Source: Dictyostelium discoideum
Lineage: Eukaryota
Assembly: GCA_000004695.1 (NCBI GenBank)
Contig: CM000150.2
Coordinates: 2,304,001-2,368,000 of the forward strand
DNA length: 64,000 bases
Direction of reading: 5' to 3'
In this document: positions 4,298-57,800 of the stretch, in pieces
How positions within the stretch are numbered: the first letter of the stretch is position 1
Layout: each line of letters opens with the position of its first letter
Program-made: the position numbers and the translations under genes
The notes under the pieces: model-generated
Seen by the model: only the letters and a program-made list of their open reading frames with translations
Told to the model about the DNA's origin: nothing
The model's database searches: none

Positions 4298-4575
4298 TGA
4301 TTTTGTTTCGTTTCAGATTTCAAGCTAATTTTTAAATTTTTTTTTTTTTTTTTTATTCATTTTTAAGATAAAAAAAAAAAAAAAAAAAAAAAAAACCAAA
4401 AACAGAATGGTTACATTCAGTTTATTATATTTTTTTATCATTTTGTGTATATTTGAGTTCTCCATTATAATATAATTTTTTTAAAATTAAAAAAAAAAAT
4501 TAAAAAAATAATTTTGGGGTGTTTTTTTTTCACTTTTTTTTTTTTTTTTTTTTTTGTATTTGTTTTGTGGTAGAT

Positions 4576-6009: not shown

Positions 6010-6967
6010 GTCTAAAACCAAAACCAAAACAAAACAAAACAAAAAAAAAAAAAATTATTTGTAAAAAGAAAATAAAAAAAAAATAAAAATTAAATTAAAA
6101 AAAAAATCTTTTTTTTTTTTTTATAATAATAAATATTAATTTCAAATAAAAAAAAAAAAAAAAAAAAAAAACAGAGTATCTATTAATTCAAAAAAACAAA
6201 AAGTATTAAGATCAGGATTATCATATTTTTAATTTTTTTTTTTTTTTTTTTTTTTTTGATGATTTTATTAAATTTAATTAATTTTAATGTTTTTTTTTTT
6301 TGGATTAAAAAAAGAATAATCTGATTAAGGAATAATTTTTATTTTTATTTTTATTTCAAAATTTTTTTTTTTTTTTTGTTTTTTTGAAATTTAAAAATAA
6401 TTTTTATTAGTAATTGTTTTTTATCATAAAAATGATATTAATAAACATTAATTGAATATTGTTGGCAATGAGGTCTTCATATTAATATTTAAAAGACGCT
6501 AAATTGGGGGTTGATTTTTATTTATTGCTAATGTTTTTTTTTTATTTAAAAAAAATTTAATTTAATTTAATTTAAATGAATAAAAAGAAAATAAAAAAAA
6601 AAAAAAAAAAAAAAGTAATAAATAGTATGTTTATTTTACAAATTAATTTGTTATAGATTTTCACACTTTTTTTCCTCACTCTATAATTTCAAACATCAAC
6701 AAACATATACACACACAATTATCCATGTAGATAAAAAAAAAAAAAAAAAAAAAATAAATAAAATAAAATAAATAAAAAAAAAAAAAAAAAAAAAAGAAAA
6801 ATAATAGTAAAAAAAAAAAAAAATCAAATATATCACACATACAACCACTTTCAATACTATAAGTAGTAGTGGATATTTTTACACTATAATTTTTAAAAAA
6901 TATTTTTGAATGTGTCTGTAAATATATGTCTTGAATAATAATATTTGAATATTATCAGTGTTACAAT

Positions 6968-10952: not shown

Positions 10953-13622
10953 GAAATTTAAATAATAATAATAATAATAATAATAATAATCAAAAACCTG
11001 AATGTTTAAATGAATTTCCAATTTCAATTACAGCGAAATCAATTAGTAAAAATTCATTAGATTATGATTATATTGATTTTGTATTAACATTAACAACTCA
11101 ATATATAAGAATTAATTTTCCAAAAGAATGTGTAATGGCATTAATTGCAATCATTGGTACAGTTGTTACAAATACAACCAATTTCTATGAAACTAAGAAA
11201 TCCATTCTTACAGTTGAAGGTTCATTTTATCAAGGTAGAGTTGGTCAATTTACTCAATCAAACACAACAACAACCACTTCACCACGTTATCATCATCAAA
11301 ATCATCATAATCATCAACATAAAAAACAAAATCGTCATAGATTATCAACAAGATTAGAAACTAATGAATTTGATCCAAATGATTTGAAATCGAAAATTAC
11401 AATTAATATACCAAGTTTTGGTTTAACGCTTAGTACAATTGAAAATGATTTAGTTGCATTCCAATTTGAGGATATTTCAATTGATGGTATTTTTCAATTA
11501 CCTTTAATAGATTGTGAATTAAAGGTTAGAGATATGAAATTCATTGATTATACAGGTTCAGATGGTCCATATCCATATATGTTGATTACACAAAAATCAC
11601 AATCACCAATGGTACCAGTTGTAAGAATGCATTTAGTTTGTCATTCAAATAGTAAAACTCAAGAATGGGGTTTTTCACGTTTAATCAATATAGCTGTTGG
11701 TAAAATTCAAATCACTTTTCTATTACAAACTATAAATTTAATACGTTTATTCATTCATGATATTACTTCATCATTAAAAGAATATTGTCCATTCTTATTT
11801 AAAGTTATGGCAATTGTTGATGATAATAATAAACCATCATCAAAAGATAATAATAATAATAATAATAACAATAATAATAGTGACAGTGATAGTGATAGTG
11901 ATACTGATAGTAGTAGTAGTAGTGAAAACAATTATAATAATAATATTGATTTAAATTCACCAGTTGTTGAAATTGTTAAAAAGAAAAAGAATTTAACAAA
12001 TTTAGAGATTGAAATTGATAATAATGTTGTAATAGTTCCAAAGAATAGTAGATCAAGATCAGCAATTAGATTTAGTGTTGGAAGAATATTACTGGGGTTA
12101 GATCAAATGGATCCAACGGTTGATGCAGTATTTGTAAAGATTTATGGTATTAATATGGCATCGAAATATGAAGATTCAATTGATCCAATCATTTCAGATC
12201 CAATTAAAATGGATATTAGATTCATTCATATGTTTGAAACTTCTTTAAAGGATAAATCAATTGAAGTCATTATTAAAATTGATAAAATTCATTTAAAGTT
12301 ATCTCAATACCAATATAATCTATTATACAATACATATCAACAAAATATTAATCAATCAATTGTACCGGCCCCACCCTCAAATTCATACTCCACTGTCGAA
12401 AGACAAGATATTCTATTGGATATTAGGTTAGAGTTTAAAGATTTTGTTGAATTAAATTTAGAAAATGAAAAAACCAATGATTCAAGATTCTTTTCAATGT
12501 TAATTCAACGTCCAATTATTTGTTGTTCAGTTTGGAATAATGGTGATTCAGATTTCTTGATTAAAACAACTGGTATAAGTGTACGTGATAAGAATAAATT
12601 AGTGGTTGTACCAAATGGATTTCAAGAGATGATCAATATTACACCATATGATTTAGATGTACCAATAAAGAATGTTATTAATCAATCGATTAATGAAGTG
12701 TTTTTTGATATAGTTAAAATGAATATCGATGACAATGGTATTGATATTAATATCACAATAGAATATTTAAGTATCTTTTTCGATTTACCTTGGGTTTCGA
12801 AATTAATAACATTCTTATCACCAATTATTGATGCCGATTATATTGGTAATAGTTGTTCAAATTCAACTAATAAATCTTCAACAACAATCAATACTCAGTT
12901 ATTACCCCCACCGCCTCCACCACCACCAATCTCATTAAATAAATCTGGTGTGAATTTAACAAATCAACAACAAAATGAAGAATTTAATTCAAAATTTAAT
13001 AAGGATTGGAAAATATTCTTAAAAGTTGAAGTATCTGCAAAGAATGCAAATATTATGGTTGGTGATTTAAATAGTAAGAATGAATTAGTATTATTAATGA
13101 ATTCATCATTATTGATTAATTCACAATTTGGTACTGAAGGTTTAATGAAAATAATATTAGAATATCAATGTATTAAAGGTTTAATTGGTAATAAAACAAA
13201 AGATCCAATCTATTCAACTAAAAATCCAAGTGCAACTACAATGTCTTTTATTTCAGCTAGCAGTCGTGATTTGGGTGCTCAAAAGAATACAACTCATTAT
13301 CTTTGGAAAGAATTAAAGAAATCTTCAAAATTATTTTTAGAAACTTTTAAAACTAATATTCAAGTTTGTTTAGTACCTGAAGGTAATCAATTCTATTTCT
13401 GTGAATTAAATGATCTATCATTGGTATTCTCTGGTAAAGCATATAAATATCTATTAGATATTTATGAATGTGTTTCTGATATAATCTATGGTGTTAGTAA
13501 ATCAAAAGATATTACAAATAATAATTTAGTTCAAAAACATAGTCGTTCATCTTCAATTAGTACAGATTTACCAATACCAATTAATTTAAGAAGAAGTTCT
13601 ATAATTTCAACAAATTTAATGC

Positions 13623-13699
<77 letters not shown>

Positions 13700-16600
13700 A
13701 ATAATAATAATAATCAAAATAACCAAGCAAGTAGTAATAATAATAATAATAATAATAATAATGTAAGTGGTAATACAATTAATAATAAAAGTGTACCAAA
13801 TGTTCATGATAAAACAAAGAATCAATTTTATCAAATTAAAACTAGATCAGTTGAGATGTTAAGAGCTCATCAAACTAGAGTTACAGAGAAATATCAAGCA
13901 TCATTACCATCAAATGGAAAAATAGCAGAAACAGAAGAGAATGAAAATGGAGATCATACATTTACAAGTGATGATGATGATGATGAAGGTGAAGATGAAG
14001 ATATTGGTGAAGGTTTTTCATTAGATCATAGTACATCAAGTGCACCAACATCAAGATCAAATTATAACAATATAAATGAACCAATGATTGATTTAAAGAG
14101 TAGTAAGAAACAAGATGATTCAAATATGGTTACAAAGATTCAATTCTCACAAATTTCAATATCAATTAAAAATCTGAATATCATTATAATGGATGATCTT
14201 AGTAAACATAAAATGAATACACCCATTTTCAATATGAAATTAAATTATGGATTTATGAAAGCAGTTTTAAAGACAACTAGAATTGAAGTTGAATTCGATT
14301 CAGTATTTCAAATGAACTATTTCAATAATAGAATTGCATATTGGGAACCATTCATTGAACCTTGGTTATTTAAATCAATGATGACATTGGGTAAAGAATT
14401 ATCAATCGATATATACAGTACAGATTTATTGAATATTAATTTCACAATACCATTAATGGATAATATAAGTCTTTTCCTTAGAACTTATAGTAAAGAATTT
14501 GGTTATCCTTTCAATTTAATTTGTGCACCATCCGATAGTAATAACACTGATAATAGTAGTAATAATGGAAAGAAATCTCATTCAAATCGTCATTCTCTAA
14601 TTGGACAAATTAAGAAAATTAAAGAAAAAAAGACAAAAACTTCTTATTCACCATTTTTCATTAGAAATAGAACTGGTTCACGTTTAAGATATAGATTGGA
14701 AACTCAAGACGGTAAACCGGTTGCAGGTGTAAATCATAAAATGGAAGGTTCAACAGTTCGTGTTGTAAATATTGAAAATTATGGACTATTTTTTGAATTG
14801 GATTCTGGTGATTGTTCACCAATTAAATTCTTACCTGATGTTCAAATTAATTTAGAAACATTTAGTCAATTGGTATTGGCAGTCGAGTTATTGGGTGTTG
14901 AAAAATCAATTTCAATTCCATTGGATAAAATTAAAATCTATGACTATCAAGTTTATTTGGATAGTTCAACCAGTACAAAACTTTATGCAAATATTGGTAT
15001 TAAAAATGGTACGAAATTAATCACAATTCAATTCCCTATAGTTTTAAAGAATTTAACATCATTCCCAATCGATATTGCAACGGTAACTAGTGGATTTGGT
15101 GATACTCAAATGCCAAACTATTCAACTACTATTAGAGTTGGTCAAGCAAGAGCACCATTACCAATCAATCGTATGAGAAATGTACAAATTAAATTTAAAC
15201 CATCAGGAGACCAATACAAGTGGAGTACTGAAGCATTGGATGTGAATAATGTTATTGAAGGTGAAGATAAATTCTCTTGTATTTTAAAGAATGGTGAAAA
15301 AATATACTACATCAAAGGTTACATTTTCAAAAAGAATCAATGTTTTATCATTAAACTTTGTCATATGTTAAAGGTTAAGAATCTATTACCTTATCCAATT
15401 CAATTCAAATTGAAATCTCCAATTGAAAATATACCACTATTAAAACGTGAAACTCAAGCAACCGTTCAAGATCAAGAGAAAACTGAAGTTTATGAAATTC
15501 CATTATTGGATAAATTTAAAATTCAAGTTAGAATCGCTGATAAAGATGGTACATTTGAAAAGAGTGAATGGAGTGAAATTCGTTCAATAGTTGAACGTGA
15601 AGATAATAATGAAATTGGTGTTATAACAATATCGGATTCAAATAATCTAATTGTTGATTATCTTCATTTAAATGTAGAATTTGAATCTTATAAAGGTGAA
15701 AAAAAGATAGTTTTCTATAATCAATATTGGATTTTTAACAAGAGTGGTTTGAATTTATACTGTAAGAAATCTTATCATTCAAAAGATTATTCAGAGAGTC
15801 AAACTCATTTTAATCATCCACTTCAACAATTAGATTCATCAAATACAAACACAACCATTAAACCATCGGATGCCATCATTGTAACACCTGATCAATGGTA
15901 TTCTCATCAATTAATAAAAGAATCACCATTGTTATTCTCTTTTAAGAAATTAAAAGATATGGAAAATTCAATAAGAATTAGAGTTGGTGATTCAAAATGG
16001 TCTCATAAGATATCAATCGCTGCAATTGGTGATCGTGGTACAATTGTAATTGATTCATCAGAGAAAAGACATTCACGTTCTTATCATTTAGGTTTATCAG
16101 TAGATTTAGCACCAAATTTAAAAACAAAAATAGTTGTTTTCACACCAAGATTTGTATTTCATAATCTTTTTCCATACACAATTTTAGTTCAACAATGTGG
16201 TGCAAACACTGATTCCACTACTATTAGAATTCCTCCATCATGTTCTGTACCATTTTATTATTTCATTAATAACACTGGTGAGTCTTCAAAACCAACATTG
16301 AAATTCAAAATTGATTATCAAGAATTTGATTGGTCTCCTCCATTTTCAATTCAAACATTTTCAGATTTTACATTTAATGTATTCAATAATAATAATAATG
16401 ATAATGTTGAAAATTATAAACAACCTGATATTCATTGTAATCCATATATTAGAATTAAAACCTGTTTAGAAGTTGCAACCATTTTAGTTATTATATCAGA
16501 ATTAAAAGAACCACCTTATAGAATATTAAATAATACAAAGTATCAACTTTCAATTCAACAGAAAAAAGTTGGTAAAGTTTTAACGGTTGAACCATCTTCA

Positions 16601-19600
16601 TCAATTCCTTATGTTTGGGATTTACCATTGGAAGATCATATTTTAGAGGTATTAGTACATATATCAACCAATCAAAGTGAAAAGGCATCTTATAAGATGG
16701 ATAAAATTAAAACTTTTAGACCAATGGAATTTAATGATGATCATAATCCTGTGGTTATTAAAGCGATTGTTGAAGCTGATGAATCAACTCGTGTATTAAC
16801 ACTCTCTGATAAGACATCATTTCAAATTAGTAAATATGAAGAAGAGAATTTACGTCAATCATTTAGAATTCATTTCACTGGTATCGGTATATCAGTTATT
16901 AATGCAAATCCAACAGAACTTCTTTACGTTTCAATTCATGATATCCTTTGTGAATATTTCATTAGTAGTTTTCTTCAAAAGTTAGAGATGAAAATTACAA
17001 ATATTCAAGTTGATAATCAATTATCAAAAGTTACACCCTATAGTCATCCAGTTTTATTATTTGCAGATAATCTATTACCAAATACACCATTCTTACAAGT
17101 TAGAATAGTAAGATCAATGAAAATGAAAAATATTGATTACTATCATCATGTCTCTTTGAAAATGCAAGAATTAAACATTAAAGTTGAAGAGAAATTCCTT
17201 TACGTATTATTGGATTTCTTTAATAGTTTAGATTTCTCATTTTGGACAGGTAATAAAAAGACAAATACTCTACATAATATGGATATGTTAACTCCAATGT
17301 ATAATGAAGATATTGGTGAAGGATTTATAGATGAAATGGTAGCTCGTGCTCTACCTTCAATCTATGGTAAGAAAATGTATTTCGAATCATTGGATATTGA
17401 ACCAATTAGTATGTTTTTAACATTTGATCTTTCAAATAAGTCTGGTTCAATCGCAAGTTTAGAACAAGCTCCAATGGTAAAAGCATTTAGAAGAATAGGT
17501 TTCGTTATTGTTAGTTTTCAACATGCTCATATATTTTTACATGGTTTCTCATTATCTCATGCATTTGGTTCGAATGAAGAATTGCTTGCACCAATTTTCA
17601 ATCATTACTTTAGTGAAGGTTTATCTGAAGTTTATAAAATATTGGGAGCATTTAATTTGTTTGGTAATCCAGTTGGTTTGGTTACAAACTTTGGAATTGG
17701 TTTTAAAGAATTTTTCGTTAGTATGGGTAAAGGTTTGGTAGGAAATAGTTTTACTGATTCATTTGGTCAAGGTTCAAAAAGTTTAGCAAAACATTCAGTC
17801 TATGGTATATTTGATTCGGGTGCAAAACTAACAGGTTCTGCTGGTAAAGTATTATCAACACTTTCAATGGATCAACGTTATATTCTAGAGAGACAATATA
17901 TCATTGGTGAATCACCAAATACATTTATGCAAGGTTTAATATTGGGTGGTAGAGCTGCAAAAACTGCTGTTTATCGTGGTTTCTCCGGTTTCGTAAAATT
18001 ACCTTATGAAGGTGGTAAAGAAGCAGGACCAAAAGGTGTTGTCAAAGGTATTGGTAAAGGAACTGCTGGTCTTGTGCTAAAACCAATTGCAGCTGGCTTT
18101 GATTTTGCTTCAAAAGTTTCAGAGGGTATTAAAAATTCAACTCAATTAAGTATAGAAAGAAAGAGAATTAGATTTCCACGTCCACTCTTTAGTGATTCAC
18201 CATTAGAAACATATGATTCAGCTGAAAGTTATGGTCACTTTTTATTCCTTACCTATATTATCACCGCTGGTAAACTTAGAAGAATCTCTGCTGATCAAAT
18301 TAATTTACCATTAATGGAAGTGGTTTCAAAGGATGAAAAATATGTTTCTCATTTAATCTATAAAAATAGAAAAACCCTTCTTTTTACCAATAAAAGAATT
18401 ATCTATCTCTATGATACCGATGGTTTTAGAACAAAATTCGATATAAAATATACAAGAATTCATGGTGTTTCTGAAAAATCAGATCATATCGATATAAAAA
18501 TAGATAAAAAACATAAACTATCATTCCTCTACAATGAAAAGAATAAAAAGATAGACTATAGAATCAAGTGTGTTGGTGAAGAGAAATCCTATATCTTTTA
18601 TAGAATAATAGAAATGATTAAAACTTATAAACCATTTGCTGATGAAGAGTTAACTGTCAATGGTTTAAAGGCTGACCCAACTACAATGATTCCAATTCCA
18701 CCACCACCCCCACCACCACTACAACAACAACTATTATATGGTTCAAATATTATTCAACAACAGCCACCAATTCAGTATTTCAATGATGGTAGTAGTAGTA
18801 GTAGTAATTTAACTGGTGGTAGAACAATTCAACCAATTATCTTTACAAATGATGCTGGTCCAATGAGAAATGATTTAAATCCAATACTTGAGAATTTATT
18901 AGCTCAACAACCAAATAAGAATATGGAGATTCCAATTTGGATTTCACAAGGTTTCAATCCACCAAAACCACCAGATACATTAATTCCACAAAGATTTAGA
19001 GACCCAAATTTAATTAATAATAATAACAACTACTATTATCCAAATGGTTCTGGTTATGTTTATTCCCAACCACCACTATATGATCAATATGGTAATCAAA
19101 TTCCACCTCCCCCACCACTTCCATCACATCCATTAGCTATTGATCGTCCAACTACAACTACAACAACAAATACAACCACAACACCCTATCAATCATCTCA
19201 AAATATTCACTCAACACCATACCCAACTGAAACTCCTCAATCTGTTGTATTAAAAGAAGATATTTCAAAAGCAATTCATACTCCATCTGCTAGCTCTTTA
19301 AAGAAATTAAAAACCCCTCATCATTACAATGTAAGATTTGAACCATCAAGTAGTTTAGGCCCTCAAGATTTTGATATTCATACAATTCGTTTACAAAATC
19401 AACAATATCAACACAGTGGAAGTGGAGCACCCCCACCCCCACCAATAATAACCACAACAACTAATTCAACCATTCCACCACCATCTTCTAATATAAATCA
19501 ACGTCAATTACAACATCAATTCTCTAGTAATTCGATAATAGAAACACCAAGATATAAAAGCATGGCTAGACAACAACAATTTCAACAACCACCACCTCCA

Positions 19601-49412: not shown

Positions 49413-51776
<2,364 letters not shown>

Positions 51777-52138
51777 TTTTTTTTTAATAAAACACATATA
51801 TCTTTTTTTTCTTTTTTTTAAAAATATAAATTTACTTTAATTTTTAATTTTTTTTTTATCCGCCATTCATTTTTTTTTTTTTTTTTTCGATGCCTTTTTT
51901 CATTTTTTAAGGGTTTTTTATTTCCTGTAATATATTTTTTATTTTTTCTTTTTATTTATTTTATTTTATTTTTACTTTTAAATTTTATTTTATTTTTACT
52001 TTTTATTTATTTTATTTTTATTTTTAAATTTTATTTTTAAATTTATTTATTTTGTTTTTATTTTTAAATTTTATTTTTATTTATTTTTTTTTATTATTAC
52101 TTTTTTTATTTTATTTTTATAAATAGAAATAGGTGAAA

Positions 52139-52699
52139 TAATGAAAGATTTAGAACAATTTGATGATATGATTGGGATCTCTAATATTAATTTTTTTGAT
52201 TTATTAAAAAAGGTTGAATTTTTAATAAAAGAAAAAAAAGATAATAGAGGTCGAAACAAATTTATAAAACAAAAGAAAAATTATTTGTCACCTTATTTCA
52301 CATGAGGCATTATACAAGATTAATTGTTTTAAATAAGTTGTTATTAGTGCATCTACATTCACTAGGATATATGATGAGATATTGGATATACTTTTTCAAT
52401 TGTTTGAGAGAGATAAAGACTTTATATCAAAATTGGAAAAAGAAAAAGAATTTATATTAGGTGATAGAGGATTTGTTGGTATTGGAAGGTTAACTATTCC
52501 AAAAGGTAAAAGAGATTATGAACAGAAACAAACAGATATAGATCAAAAATCAATAAGAATAATTATTGAAAATGTGTTTTCAAAAATAAAAAGATTCTTT
52601 ATTACAAGTATGCCACTAAGATATAAATTTTCAGTAGGATCAATTGATATGGATAGTGTTCAAGAAAAACACAATAAGAGATCTAAAAAAAAATCTTAA
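52139..52699 (+). mobile_element. Remnant of a Harbinger/PIF (DDE_Tnp_4)-type DNA-transposon transposase gene: an N-terminal fragment (52139..52312, MKDLEQFDDMIGISNINFFDLLKKVEFLIKEKKDNRGRNKFIKQKKNYLSPYFT*) and a C-terminal fragment (ORF 52382..52699) separated by stops
   Basis: The C-terminal fragment FILGDRGFVGIGRLTIPKGKR...IENVFSKIKRFFITSMPLRYKF matches the DDE_4 C-terminal block (LlGDsgYp....ltP.......fN...s..R..vE..FG.lK.rFrilr.....). Upstream, 51950-52130 is a tttatttt(t/a)-type subterminal repeat landscape. The catalytic middle of the gene is absent. Confidence 0.45.
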
Positions 52700-52818
52700 A
52701 AAATGACAACGAATAATAAAATAATTTAATAATGAATTCAATGATTTTTTAATTGTTCACCATTTTTTTTTTCATATAAAATTAATATGAAAAAAAAATG
52801 AAAAAAAAAACAAAAAAA

Positions 52819-52942
52819 AACACTTCTGTGGATAATTGAATTAATTATAATTAACTCAGCGTATTTTAAAAAAGATCGAGTTATCACGGAATAAATTCAG
52901 TTGTTTCGAAATTGAAAAATTAATTCAATTATTCACAGAAAG
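52819..52942. repeat. Inverted repeat with 20-24-bp arms (ctgtggataattgaattaat at 52824-52843 and attaattcaattattcacag at 52918-52937, 1 mismatch) flanking a 75-bp spacer, 120 bp downstream of the Harbinger-like remnant
   Basis: The reverse complement of ctgtggataattgaattaat is attaattcaattatccacag; the observed partner is attaattcaattattcacag. Confidence 0.6.
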
Positions 52943-53126
52943 GTCAATTGGAAAATTCATTTTTTTTGTTTTTTTTTTGGTGGAATCCATTCCAGGGTCC
53001 CAAATTTATAAGTGAAATTACCCAAAATCCCAAAAAAAAAAGTTTTTTTTTCGAAAAAAAAAAATAAAAAAATATAAATATAAATAAAAAATAAAAAATG
53101 AAAAAAAAAAACACTTTGAAATCAAA

Positions 53127-53543
53127 ATGATAAATAAATTCTATTTATATCCAATTTATTTAATAATAATTATTTGCATTAATAGCAATAATAATAATAA
53201 TAATAATGGTGCCTTTGTATTAGGACAAGTTCAAGGAGTAACTTATTCAATTGATCAAAGTTTTGGTTATACCTATTTAAATTCATTTTCGGGTTCATGT
53301 CAATATTCATTTTCATTAAAAGTTTATAATAATCTATCCCCAGTCACTGAATTAAAATATGATGTAGAACCAGGACTAACAATAAAACCAATGATAATTG
53401 ATTCAGTTAATAACTATTCAATTTTTTCGATTAATTGTCCATTGACTGTAAATATTCCCAAGCAATTTAAATTTCTTGGGAACACTTTAAATCCACAAGT
53501 AAATTCTTTATCAAAAAACTTTTCAACTGATTTATATTGCCAA

Positions 53544-53610
<67 letters not shown>

Positions 53611-56600
53611 ATTAACAATTATAAAAAAAATAAATAAAGATTTTAATGTTGAAGGTTTAAATTTAGATATAAATAATTCAAGTTTGGTAGCTAATGATGG
53701 ATTTAATGGAATTAGTGGTTTATTAAGTATTAGTGGTTTAAAATATCCAATTAAAGAAATTACAGCTAGTTCAAAATATGCCCAAGTAAAGATATTCAAT
53801 AAAATTAATAATTTATATTATATAACTTTCTCTTCACCACCTCCAACTAATATTGGCGTTTGGCTTATAGATTTATTATTTCCAAATAAAAATTTAACTG
53901 TAGCATTAATTAATAATCTTTTTAAGAGTAGGTTTTATTTTATTTTTATTTTTTATAATAAAAAAAAAAAAAAAAAAAAAACTAAAAATTAATAATTTAT
54001 ATAGATACAAATAACTTAATTAGTGATTATAAAGTTTATGAACCATCAATTGACACTTTAAGATTAATGGGTACATTTACTCCACCATGTTTTACATTTA
54101 CATTGAATGACAATACAGAAGCATTACAAAGTTATCCATTCTTTTTTGTAAAATTATTTAATGATGTTACTTTGAATAATCCAGTTATCCAAGTATCATT
54201 TAATAATGTGCCTTATTATCTTGGAGATTTTTCAAGATTCAATTCAATTGATCAATATTCAGGTTCAATTCTCTCAACATTACAAAACCCAATTGCAAAT
54301 ATATCCTATCAATACAATAATAATTATGTTGATGCATTTCCCAAGAGTTTAAATTATTTGTGTAAGTTTTATTTATTTATTTATTTATTTATTTATTTTA
54401 TTTATTTATTATAATAATAATAATAATTATTATTATTGTTCTTATTTTAGATAAAAGTCTTAGTTTAAGTCAAGGTTCTACGGGACCTAGTAAAACCACA
54501 GATAAAATTACACTATTTCGAACTTCATTTCAAAAAATTTCACATACAAAATGTGAATTAAAAAATGATAGAAATATTACAAAATTTTTAGATTTTCCTT
54601 ACGGATATGGTATAGGTAGTACTAATTCATTCATTTTTAATTTTGAATTGTATGATCCGATTCGAACTCTAAGTTATAGGTTAGAAGTTTCTAGAACGAC
54701 TTTTTCTTCAAATTCTCCTCCAAACATAGGTAAGTTTTTATTTTACTAATTATCGATTGATTTTTTTTATTTTTTTGTTTATTTAAATAAATAATTAATT
54801 TTACTAAAAAAAAAAAAAATAGTATCAAGATTAAGATATTTTAAAATTGATAGAATTTTCAATAGATATGTTATGATTAGTGTTGGATTTTATCTTGAAA
54901 GTTCATCAAATTTTGATAATGTTTTAATTGGTAAACCAGGTGATGCAGATAAATTATTTAGATTCAATAGTTATAATGAAACTACTGGTTTATATCAAAT
55001 GTTTTATAAATATTCTAAAAATCCATTCAATAGAGATGATGATCGATTTTCATTTAGAGTTTTAAGTACAAATGGTGCAATAACTACATTTATAGAAGAT
55101 GAAGTGTTTATTGACCAATTTTCAAATAAAGGTACCATTTTATCACCTTCAAATTATTTTACAGAATTTAATAGTGAAGATATTGAAAGTATAACATTTA
55201 AAGAAAATGTTGTAAATACTACATTAAAATCAACATTGAATAGGGTTTATGTTAAATTAAACACCACCAATTCAAAAGTTATACCAAAAGGTGATAGTAT
55301 ACCAATTGGTTTTCAATTTAGAAATGGTAGAAGATTTACTAAAAATCCAGAATCATATCAAGATTTATTAGAAGATTCAGAGGGTAAAAAAGTTTATTAT
55401 TTAGATTGGAATAGTACATCAAAAGCATGGGAATCTGATTTTATAATACCAGCAAATTTAGTAACTGGTCAAATTTATTATTACATTCTAAGTTCAAAAC
55501 AATTACATAATAATTTCTATCAAAAATTCCCTTTAACAGTATTTTCAAATCAATTTGATCTTTTAGGTCCAATTATTTATAATCTTTCAAAATTGACACC
55601 AATTGAATCATCAACTGAAATTGAATTTGGTTGGGATATTAATATTAAAGATGAATTAAATGGTTTTAAAAGTGGTTTTATTGTAGTTAGAGGTGATATT
55701 GATAATTCAATTTATAATTATACATTAACATCAAAAATTGGTAATAATATTCTTATTGAAAATGATGTTATAAAATCAATTGACTTTAAAATAAGAATTA
55801 AAATTTCAAAAGTTCCAACATGTGTAACTCAAACTTATTCTATTACTGAATTGTTTTTACAAGATAATCAAGATCATATTACAAAATTTAATCAAGTTGA
55901 AGAAAAGTCACAACTTTATCCACAATTGAACCCATTTTTATTCTTTTTTAATTCATCTTTAATTATTACAACTAGTATTATATGTCCTTCAGCTGTTCCA
56001 TCACCAAATGATTCAAATGTACCAATAATAACTAGTCTTGCTTTAAAGAATAGTCAATTAATCGAATTTAATAATGATACAAAATCATTTGAAGCATCAA
56101 TAGTATTCACTGTTTATTCTTATTTTGGAATTAAAAATGAACAATATCCAACATGTTATTTAAATTCTGGTGATTTAGATTTTATTTATTCAAAAGCAAT
56201 TCTTGAATCATTTAATGATACATCCTATAATTATCGTTGTGTAATTCCTGTTAGAAGAGGATTTGGTTATCCAAATCAAATATTACTTTCAATCTTTGGT
56301 TTAATTAGTAATATTGGTTTATTTAATGGTTATACATCAGGTGTATTATTTAATACATTTGGTATTGGTATATTTCCAAATAGTGTTTCTGTTCCTACTT
56401 TTTCATTCCCAGTTTTAACAAATGTTTATTATTCAAGTGGATCATTTTGGATTCAAGGTTATAATTTATTCAATTTGAATTTTGTTATGGTTACAAATGT
56501 AACTTCTTCAACAAAAATTTATTATGAAATTGATAACACAATCGATAGTAGATTTCAAAATTTAATAAAATTAAATATTCAATCATTATCAGGAAACTTT

Positions 56601-57800
56601 GATTTTTTAGTTGTGGGAATTCAATATGATTCAAGAACTACAAATACACTTTTCTTTGATAATAGATTAATAGTAAATTATGAACCACCAACAACACCAC
56701 CAATTGTACCAACTTTAACACCAATTCAAAAATGTTCTGGAACACCATTATGTGGTGGTATTGATCATGGTTATTGTAGTCAAACGGTTGGTTGTATTTG
56801 TTATTCACCATATATTGGAATTGATTGTACATCACAAGTTATTGTAATACCTCAACCAAATATAACAAAACCAACTGATCCATCTGTTATTATTGAAACT
56901 AAACCTATTGGAGATAATAATAACCAAACATCAGGTAATCAAGTTTTATTATCAAGTATAATTTCAATTGCTGAACTTAGAGAAATTAATAGTAATAATA
57001 ATACAATTATAAAAAGATTTAAATTTGAAAAATGGGTTCAAACTACATTATCACCCACAATATCACAATATATTTCAAATGATGTATCGGATGGTTTAAT
57101 AGATCCACCAGCAATTGTAAATGTAAGAATTGAATGGTTTTCAAATTCAACCAATATCTCTTTTGCTGATCAATCAATTTTAATTAATCCATCAACTTTA
57201 AAATATACAATCACCATTTCACAATATAAATATCAATCAAGATTAAATAATCTTCAATTGATTATGAATGCTAAAGTTCAATCTAATCAAAGTGATAATA
57301 TATGCTCAAGTTATCAATTTGGTGAATCTTTTGATTATGAACATGAAAATAGTATTAACTTTATAAAATTACAAATTGGTAAATATAGTTTAAGAGGTAA
57401 ATATATTAAAAGAGCAATTATTGATTCTTCAAGAATTGTTACAATTAAAAATGAAATCTTATATGATTTAGATAATCAACAACAACAACAACAACAAGCA
57501 AATAGTACTCAATCATATGTTGGTATTACAATACCATACTTTTTAGATAGTGCAATATTAGATCCAGATTTTTCAGTTTTATTAGATAGTGGTGAAGCAA
57601 ATTCAGATTCTCCAAACTCTGTTTGTGGAAATGACTTTGAATCTGGTTTAAGTAAAGGTCAACTTATTGGAATTATTATTGGTTCTGCAATTTTTTTCAT
57701 CAGTCTTGTAGCTATTTTAATTTATTTAGTTTATAAAACTGCCATTTGTTTACCAGTTAGAATATTTTTATATAAAATATCAAAAAAATCAAAGGTGTAA
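53127..57800 (+). CDS. Large type-I transmembrane surface glycoprotein with an EGF-like Cys module, 1430 aa; 5 exons join(53127..53544,53667..53927,54005..54361,54451..54729,54823..57800)
   Basis: Signal peptide MINKFYLYPIYLIIIICINS. Donors GTAAAA at 53545 (with an A(59) run inside intron 1), GTAGGT at 53928, GTAAGT at 54362 and GTAAGT at 54730. Acceptors tttag at 53665-53666, tatatag at 54003-54004, attttag at 54449-54450 and aaatag at 54821-54822. All introns are phase 1 and the total is 4293 nt = 1431 codons. The product has many N-glycosylation sites, an EGF-like CSGTPLCGGIDHGYCSQTVGCICYSPYIGIDC, a TM helix LIGIIIGSAIFFISLVAILIYLVY and a short basic cytoplasmic tail. Its exon architecture and Thr/Asn-rich Ig/IPT-like ectodomain resemble the gene at 383..1729. 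Confidence 0.7.

Follow-up and report, generated by a model that had tools for sequence, protein, structure and literature searches.

Transposons of the PIF/Harbinger superfamily are eukaryotic cut-and-paste elements, recognized by a transposase of the Pfam family DDE_Tnp_4, with HARBI1 and the bacterial IS5 group among their relatives. Their usual target-site duplication is the 3-bp TWA, and a second open reading frame (ORF) coding for a Myb/SANT-like protein is typical, although not universal. For Dictyostelium discoideum, the DNA transposons Tdd-4, Tdd-5, DDT-A/B/S and thug-S/T were reportedly catalogued by Glockner et al. in 2001. In the literature searched, which did not extend to that classical repeat catalogue, there was no report of a PIF/Harbinger or DDE_Tnp_4 element in Dictyostelium. 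Here we describe a block located at 51924-~52988 of a stretch of 64,000 nucleotides of the D. discoideum genome (assembly GCA_000004695.1, contig CM000150.2, positions 2,304,001 to 2,368,000 of the forward strand), called the window from here on, whose numbering is used throughout. We read this block as a dead copy of a PIF/Harbinger-type (DDE_Tnp_4) transposon, truncated on its 5' side and with an internal deletion, in which a miniature inverted-repeat transposable element (MITE) is nested, and give this reading a probability of about 0.85.

The element used as a reference for the comparison is 2.4 kb long and comes from two different loci of one wild strain, L001 (4480-6883) and L011 (7307-10275). 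The two copies are 98.4% identical over 2.3 kb (L001 4601-6883 and L011 8000-10275), and both limits of the homology are formed by inverted sequences. The left terminal inverted repeat starts with TGATAATTTTCACCAAAA and the right one finishes with TTTTGGTGAAAGTTATGA. The terminal 20-mers, TGATAATTTTCACCAAAAAT and TCATAACTTTCACCAAAATT (the latter given as the reverse complement), agree in 17 of their 20 positions in each copy, and over a longer stretch of 46 nt the inverted repeat still matches at 85%. Just inside both ends there are palindromes made of A-runs and T-runs (A9-10 C A7-8 ... T7-9 G T9-17), located in L001 at 4494-4560 on the left and at 6784-6825 / 6828-6869 on the right. The element has a single gene of two exons that codes for ~690 amino acids (aa), with a Cys-rich N-terminus followed by a helix-turn-helix (HTH) domain, HTH_Tnp_4, and then by DDE_Tnp_4. 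The exon structure was derived from the gene models. P0025 (a 346-aa ORF directly upstream of the transposase ORF P0005) and P0005 itself fall into clusters of at least 90% identity, whose members (P0026-P0029) come from several loci in two wild strains, and the longer models among them run directly from the upstream ORF into the transposase. Therefore, the two ORFs are exons of one gene, separated by a short AT-rich GT...AG intron (L001). The protein P0026 reads TRGNKH immediately before the L001 exon junction and IVEIMNDTEQ immediately after it. P0029, in which the HTH and catalytic regions are complete, matched the full DDE_Tnp_4 profile with 68.5 bits and HTH_Tnp_4 with 29.4 bits (cut-off, 27); P0012 reached 78.9 bits over the full DDE_Tnp_4 profile, and P0026 reached 29.0 bits with HTH_Tnp_4, also above the cut-off. 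We assign the 2.4-kb element to the DDE_Tnp_4 group as a whole.

Several features of the 2.4-kb element are those of PIF/Harbinger transposons, i.e., the DDE_Tnp_4 domain with the motifs VVDGSEQ, GDKGF and IRIIIENVF, the HTH_Tnp_4 domain upstream of it, terminal inverted repeats of tens of nucleotides, a compact size and the existence of internally deleted derivatives. With the catalogued DNA transposons of D. discoideum it shares the host, the low copy number, the inverted-repeat ends and the presence of some non-autonomous members, a likeness at the level of general description. The dispersed copies comprise five gene models that lie on separate contigs of two wild strains and share an identity of 90% or more, and more distant fragments or members were found in AX4 (DDB_G0267216), Dictyostelium purpureum, Dictyostelium firmibasis, Polysphondylium violaceum and Heterostelium album. 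At E<=1e-3, an exhaustive search of 1.84 billion retrieved only 562 cluster representatives, which makes this a small protein clade. Among them are two relatives of full length (691 and 641 aa) that share the architecture of the ~690-aa protein, together with many proteins of 250-300 aa that have only the HTH and DDE regions. The complete protein gave faint matches or none against NCBIfam and the PDB sequences, the N-terminal 346 aa (P0025) had no match in Pfam, Myb/SANT included, and a search with Pfam for a Myb-like partner in the ORF located upstream of a 259-aa distant relative (L005) was equally negative. Incidentally, in one of the gene models, P0027 (ACTFIR_002183), the transposase is fused to a tail that has a Gag-like zinc knuckle (CLNCGKSNHKVATC), which suggests that a retroelement lies within this copy of the transposon or next to it.

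The coding remains in the window belong to this family. The ORF at 52382-52699 matched DDE_Tnp_4 (E = 9.1e-8, 32.3 bits, curated cut-off 24.8) at profile positions 63-142 of 158. Using P0029 as a tblastn query, residues 242-281, 282-310 and 313-332 were recovered at 52135-52254, 52254-52340 and 52343-52402, in three different frames (1, 0 and 2, respectively) and with a joint E of 1.7e-24, while residues 424-518 aligned to 52397-52675 with 82% identity (E of 1.6e-42). The three-frame translation of 52100-52760 also has transposase-like text distributed over the three frames, and a search with its joined version retrieved two proteins, the AX4 gene model of this locus (DDB_G0268906) and P0005, a wild-strain paralogue that retains the catalytic middle. 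At the DNA level, 52080-52401 corresponds to L001 5784-6104 and 52400-52819 to L001 6382-6825, with ~76% identity over 740 bp (blastn and MAFFT); within exon 2, the identity to L001 is 76% in the 5' part and 83% in the 3' part. An earlier note, made from the sequence alone, had proposed a PIF/Harbinger-type transposase relic consisting of two out-of-frame fragments, one of them N-terminal and HTH-like, and its assignment to the superfamily is confirmed by these matches. Both fragments are real; the pieces are spread over three frames, with two frameshifts. The HTH region is likewise present (a weak 13.6 bits with HTH_Tnp_4 in the joined translation), located in the middle of a protein of ~690 aa, and it is the true N-terminus that is absent, as the exon 1 product (the N-terminal ~390 aa) had no tblastn match anywhere in the window.

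The catalytic middle was rightly described as missing. Residues 333-423 of P0029, which include the near-invariant VVDGSEQ with the first catalytic Asp, have no counterpart in the window as a consequence of a 279-bp deletion. The D-D-E triad is thus incomplete, with the second Asp (GDRGF) and the Glu (IIIENVF) retained and the first Asp gone, a loss that was placed by a protein alignment with twelve family members. Close to the end of the reading frame, another deletion of 14 nt (~52679/80) replaces the C-terminal motif HHKxWC...N and leads to a stop codon at 52697-52699. Given the 279-bp loss, the two frameshifts, the 14-nt deletion and the lack of a left end, the relic can neither make a transposase nor be moved. 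The idea of an internally deleted, non-autonomous transposon therefore stands as far as the internal deletion is concerned, and since both the left terminus and exon 1 are missing, "dead relic" describes the copy better than mobilizable non-autonomous element. A comparison of the window copy with L001 over 154 alignable codons gave a dN/dS (ratio of nonsynonymous to synonymous substitution rates) of 0.12 (bootstrap, 0.06-0.23) and a dS of 1.19, and so the divergence accrued mostly while both lineages encoded a working protein. The two lineages thus split long ago and were mainly subject to constraint on the protein, in the manner of divergent subfamilies of a working transposon, and the frameshifts and deletions of the window copy are comparatively recent. 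The coordinates of all the parts are collected in Table 1. Within the 64-kb window, further copies of the relic were searched for with only low-complexity matches as a result, and 51500-53400 had no match in Rfam at E<=1.

Table 1. Parts of the transposon relic and of the strain-polymorphic block that contains it (positions in the window)
Feature	Position	Strand	Remarks
Strain-polymorphic block, encloses all parts	51924-~52988	+	Filled in the window and L009; empty in L008 and L010
T-rich low-complexity tandem array	51936-52079	.	Periods 5-6 and 40-51; tandem repeats finder (TRF) score up to 203
Intron 3'-end remnant (single intron of the transposase gene)	52080-52126	+	AG at 52125-52126; 77% identity to L001 5784-5833
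Exon 2, 5' part (HTH_Tnp_4-type region)	52127-52401	+	Frameshifts near 52254-52270 and near 52340; tblastn
Internal-deletion junction	52401/52402	+	279 bp (93 codons; L001 6105-6381) gone, including the Asp of VVDGSEQ
Exon 2, 3' part	52402-52699	+	GDRGF and IIIENVF kept; DDE_Tnp_4 32.3 bits; 83% DNA identity to L001
3' untranslated/subterminal region	52700-52821	+	Terminates in the A-rich palindrome arm
Nested MITE, ~125 bp	52822-52946	+	Arms 52823-52846 and 52918-52941; deletion derivative of the 572-bp element
Unassigned ~12 bp, from the MITE to the resumed element	52947-52958	.	Resembles the MITE's own subterminal AATTGAAAAATT; read from sequence
Palindrome T-rich arm, then GGTGGAATCCATT (right terminal inverted repeat remnant)	52959-52991	+	Reaches the flank junction

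The right end of the element can still be recognized. The last 50 nt before the MITE (52772-52821) are the best-conserved part of the relic, with 88% identity to L001 (59% at 52680-52771), as expected of a cis-acting end region. On the other side of the MITE, the 19-mer T8GT10 at 52960-52978 pairs with A10CA9 at 52801-52820. Neither is found anywhere else in the 64 kb, and together they reproduce the 3' palindrome of the reference element. They are followed by GGTGGAATCCATT at 52979-52991, which resembles the reference terminus GGTGAAAGTTATGA.

The inverted repeat located between the two palindrome arms had been taken by the earlier note as one of the brackets of the transposon. The repeat itself is real (22 of the 24 positions of the arms are complementary, and 0 of 100 shuffles of the window gave a match); it neither brackets nor ends the relic and corresponds to a separate MITE nested in it. 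Window 52825-52911 is 91% identical to L011 7435-7521, i.e., to the first 87 nt of a 572-bp element, and 52919-52945 is 93% identical to positions 546-572 of the same element; compared with L001, the hairpin region has 48% identity, which is the background level. The 572-bp element (L011 7428-7999) interrupts a wild-strain transposase gene just past its start codons and is missing from L001. Its ends (GGATCTATCAGTGAATAATTGA and TCAATTATTCACTGATAGGTCC) match at 21 of 22 positions, its arms extend for ~100 nt at 74%, and there is an AAT at each flank in L011, versus the single AAT of the uninterrupted L001 site GTTAATGAAAGC. A third, diverged copy of its interior was found at L011 14822-15156, so that the MITE was seen at three places in the ~200 kb sampled; around the window copy no target duplication was visible, and the search for further copies of the inverted repeat within the 64 kb gave only low-complexity matches. 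On these alignments, the inverted repeat at 52823-52941 is an independent element and not a terminus of the relic. Taken together, the relic and its nested MITE bear out the small nest of transposon sequence that had been suggested for this spacer. The MITE insertion site in the window is the exact center of the 3' palindrome of the relic, as might happen if hairpins or cruciforms were preferred as targets.

Like Tourist-like MITEs (e.g., mPing), the nested element is short (125 bp, and 572 bp in L011) and noncoding, its repeats begin with GG and it makes a 3-bp A/T-rich duplication at the L011 insertion. Unlike them, this duplication is AAT and not TAA/TTA. The terminal repeats of the nested element (GGAYCTATCAGTGAATAATTGA) differ from those of the 2.4-kb DDE_Tnp_4 element (TGATAATTTTCACC), and so they do not identify the latter as its autonomous partner. 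A certain likeness between the ends of both was judged coincidental by eye. A literature search for the terminal-repeat strings and the hairpin arms produced no relevant match.

The spacer that hosts the relic measures 1.35 kb in the window, from an Asn-rich 787-aa ORF (49413-51776) to exon 1 of an EGF-like surface-protein gene (53127 onward), and comparison with other assemblies revealed a presence/absence polymorphism of the block among D. discoideum strains. In an AX4-like assembly, L009 (GCA_054883475.1), the 5 kb around the relic aligned to the window with 0 mismatches and two indels, and 51700-53200 was identical. In L008 (GCA_054859355.1), only ~8-20 bp stand in place of the whole block according to the alignment. 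L008 9373-9853 aligns to window 51453-51923 and L008 9874-10600 to window 52999-53752, and the two neighbor genes are only ~290 bp apart there. L010 (GCA_054859385.1) has an empty site matching that of L008. The homology of the flanks to the empty sites restarts at about 52988-52999, and the right limit of the block falls on what remains of the element's right terminus. At the left junction there is only a weak TGTAAT, versus TGATAAT in the reference element. Either the NC4/AX4 lineage gained the block by insertion or the other strains lost it by excision or deletion. We note here that the shared gene ends and spacer (window 51453-51923 and 52999-53752) are 88-92% identical between the window and L008, and that a flank difference of 8-12% between the NC4/AX4 type and wild assemblies labeled D. 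discoideum is high within one species.

A history consistent with these data can be proposed. By analogy with the family, the transposase would have bound the terminal repeats and moved the element by cutting and pasting it. The window copy comes from a divergent subfamily, and its left terminus and exon 1 are gone, as is most of the intron. Later on, a second and unrelated miniature element would have been inserted in the 3' palindrome of the relic; its nesting is plain from the alignments, and its arrival by transposition is the likely route. That the relic itself transposed into this exact site is something we infer, and here the evidence has to be set on both sides. No left terminal repeat was recognizable in the window, including the second inverted-repeat partner that had been anticipated near 51790-51900, and no target-site duplication of the block could be identified by comparison with the empty sites of L008 and L010, be it the 3-bp TAA/TTA suggested beforehand or any other. 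The 2.4-kb element itself has no matching flanks at L001 or L011, and so, unlike in PIF/Harbinger transposons, no 3-bp TWA duplication is detectable for it. It also departs from them in having one two-exon gene with a Cys-rich N-terminal extension of ~390 aa, with no trace of the typical Myb-like (Myb/SANT) second ORF. Finally, the 105-aa C-terminal ORF of the relic is still open, and residual expression is possible. All these points weigh against our interpretation. As candidates for the missing signals, the many inverted pairs of T-runs and A-runs were rejected as terminal repeats because they are low-complexity matches. The direct repeat 51865-51892 / 52955-52982 (89%) was also discarded as a long target duplication, both copies being mostly poly-T and the one at 51865-51892 being ordinary flank that is present at the empty sites too.

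The absence of a target duplication and of a left terminal repeat is also what would be expected if the block were ancestral host sequence, such as a duplicated gene fragment, lost from the wild strains by ordinary deletion with no transposition at this place. The junction microhomology, of only 2-3 bp (TC), and the 24% divergence of the relic from the wild-strain family, versus 8-12% in the flanks, point in the same direction. However, the right breakpoint falls within a few base pairs of the right terminal remnant, both empty sites have the same junction with intact flanks, and the homologous sequence is found elsewhere in multiple copies at 98% identity with terminal repeats at its ends, all of which makes an ordinary deletion quite improbable. 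Still less probable is a host function for the remaining coding sequence. The AX4 annotation has a gene model at the relic, DDB_G0268906 (P0004), of 120 aa with a 200-bp "intron" (52215-52414), which appears in UniProt as a DDE Tnp4 domain-containing protein, and it could be imagined as a real, domesticated short gene, with a C-terminal transposase fragment kept for the host and the HTH part converted into a true intron. The open 105-aa ORF and the low dN/dS against the paralogue (0.12) might be cited in its favor. Yet the predicted intron shows codon-by-codon homology to the stretch that codes for the HTH in complete copies, the first catalytic Asp has been lost by deletion, the whole locus is missing in two wild strains, and a second annotation pipeline gives a different model (156 aa in L009). 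Besides, selection that acted before the inactivation would by itself give a low dN/dS for the pair, and this value is uninformative about the relic's own branch. DDB_G0268906 is most likely a gene-prediction artifact over the relic.

As to the inverted repeat at 52823-52941, it might be considered a functional RNA hairpin, e.g., a MITE-derived precursor of a microRNA or another small RNA. Its stem is strong (-35.8 kcal/mol on the + strand, with fold z-scores of -7.0 on that strand and -4.6 on the - strand), and the two mismatches of the arms turn into G-U pairs on the + strand only. The microRNA loci of D. discoideum are mostly intergenic hairpins, some of them from the transposon thug-S (PMC6161686, PMC4894637), which gives rise to small RNAs (PMC4894637). 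On the other hand, there was no Rfam match, the arm sequences are missing from the supplement of PMC6161686 and from the literature searched, a 24-bp stem with a 71-nt loop is atypical for a precursor, and the chance that two transitions both end as G-U on one strand is 1 in 4. We consider this possibility unlikely. There is finally the concern, already raised by the earlier note, that the transposase similarity could be fortuitous in low-complexity DNA, given that the region is AT-rich and has simple repeats at its flanks. It can be dismissed almost entirely, because the Pfam match is above the curated cut-off, the tblastn matches go down to 1e-42 and there is 76% DNA identity over 740 bp to a paralogue with a complete catalytic domain. 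Both profile support and other genomic copies do exist.

The T-rich field upstream of the coding remains (51936-52120) is the top-scoring AT-rich TRF array of the window (203; the next AT-rich arrays listed have scores of at most 168), and it is of the same low-complexity type as many intergenic stretches of the window. The repeat field perceived by the earlier note is consequently real, although it lies mostly outside the element homology and shows no sign of subterminal binding sites. Its identity to L001 is 47%, the background level, and its similarity to the L001 intron is marginal, with 12 of 300 shuffles scoring equally. Its candidacy as a homologue of the element's 5' region was not significant (246 of 300 shuffles scored as high) and was dropped. 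Only the final ~45 nt are the 3' end of the transposase gene's intron, most of the remainder being outside the homology.

Regarding the neighborhood, the upstream 787-aa ORF had been described as piggyBac-like. What backs this is one sub-threshold Pfam match to PF13843 (DDE_Tnp_1_7), with 20.9 bits (E of 2.4e-4) versus a cut-off of 22.4, limited to positions 29-90 of a profile of 349. A Pfam scan of the complete Asn-rich protein gave no DDE_Tnp_1_7 match. This ORF has a Cys-rich, IBR/B-box-like C-terminus, and three other strain assemblies have an orthologous ORF at this place, with 739-788 aa in the complete cases. The 787-aa ORF could represent an old host gene of piggyBac origin devoid of the catalytic core. 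Downstream of the block, the ORF at 54873-57800 is an exact portion of the AX4 protein XP_647050, encoded by the EGF-like gene, and the window is DNA of the NC4/AX4 type. In the L010 assembly, a gene for a 1574-aa reverse transcriptase (RVT_1) was found at 13420-18266, ~2.8 kb downstream of the RabT1 orthologue.

The locus itself is a nonfunctional remnant, and DDB_G0268906 should probably be treated as a pseudogene. Its value lies in that it documents a DDE_Tnp_4 (PIF/Harbinger-type) lineage in Dictyostelium. A wider proposal, which we put forward tentatively and would not yet bet on, is that the relic is the laboratory-strain fossil of an undescribed family of transposons whose mobility in wild D. 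discoideum persists or ended only very recently. This would be a single-gene, PIF/Harbinger-type family in which a fused Cys-rich N-terminal domain replaces the Myb-like partner, without the canonical TWA duplication, and that coexists with an independent MITE family whose insertions generate 3-bp duplications and break up transposase copies, and which forms long hairpins. In practical terms, the block and the nested MITE provide clean presence/absence markers between strains, and the hairpin is a candidate source of small RNAs. The annotated proteins of the reference strain contain only fragments of this transposon, whereas wild isolates have copies that are 98% identical and keep their terminal repeats, and therefore the repeat catalogue of the laboratory strain may under-represent the mobile DNA of the species.

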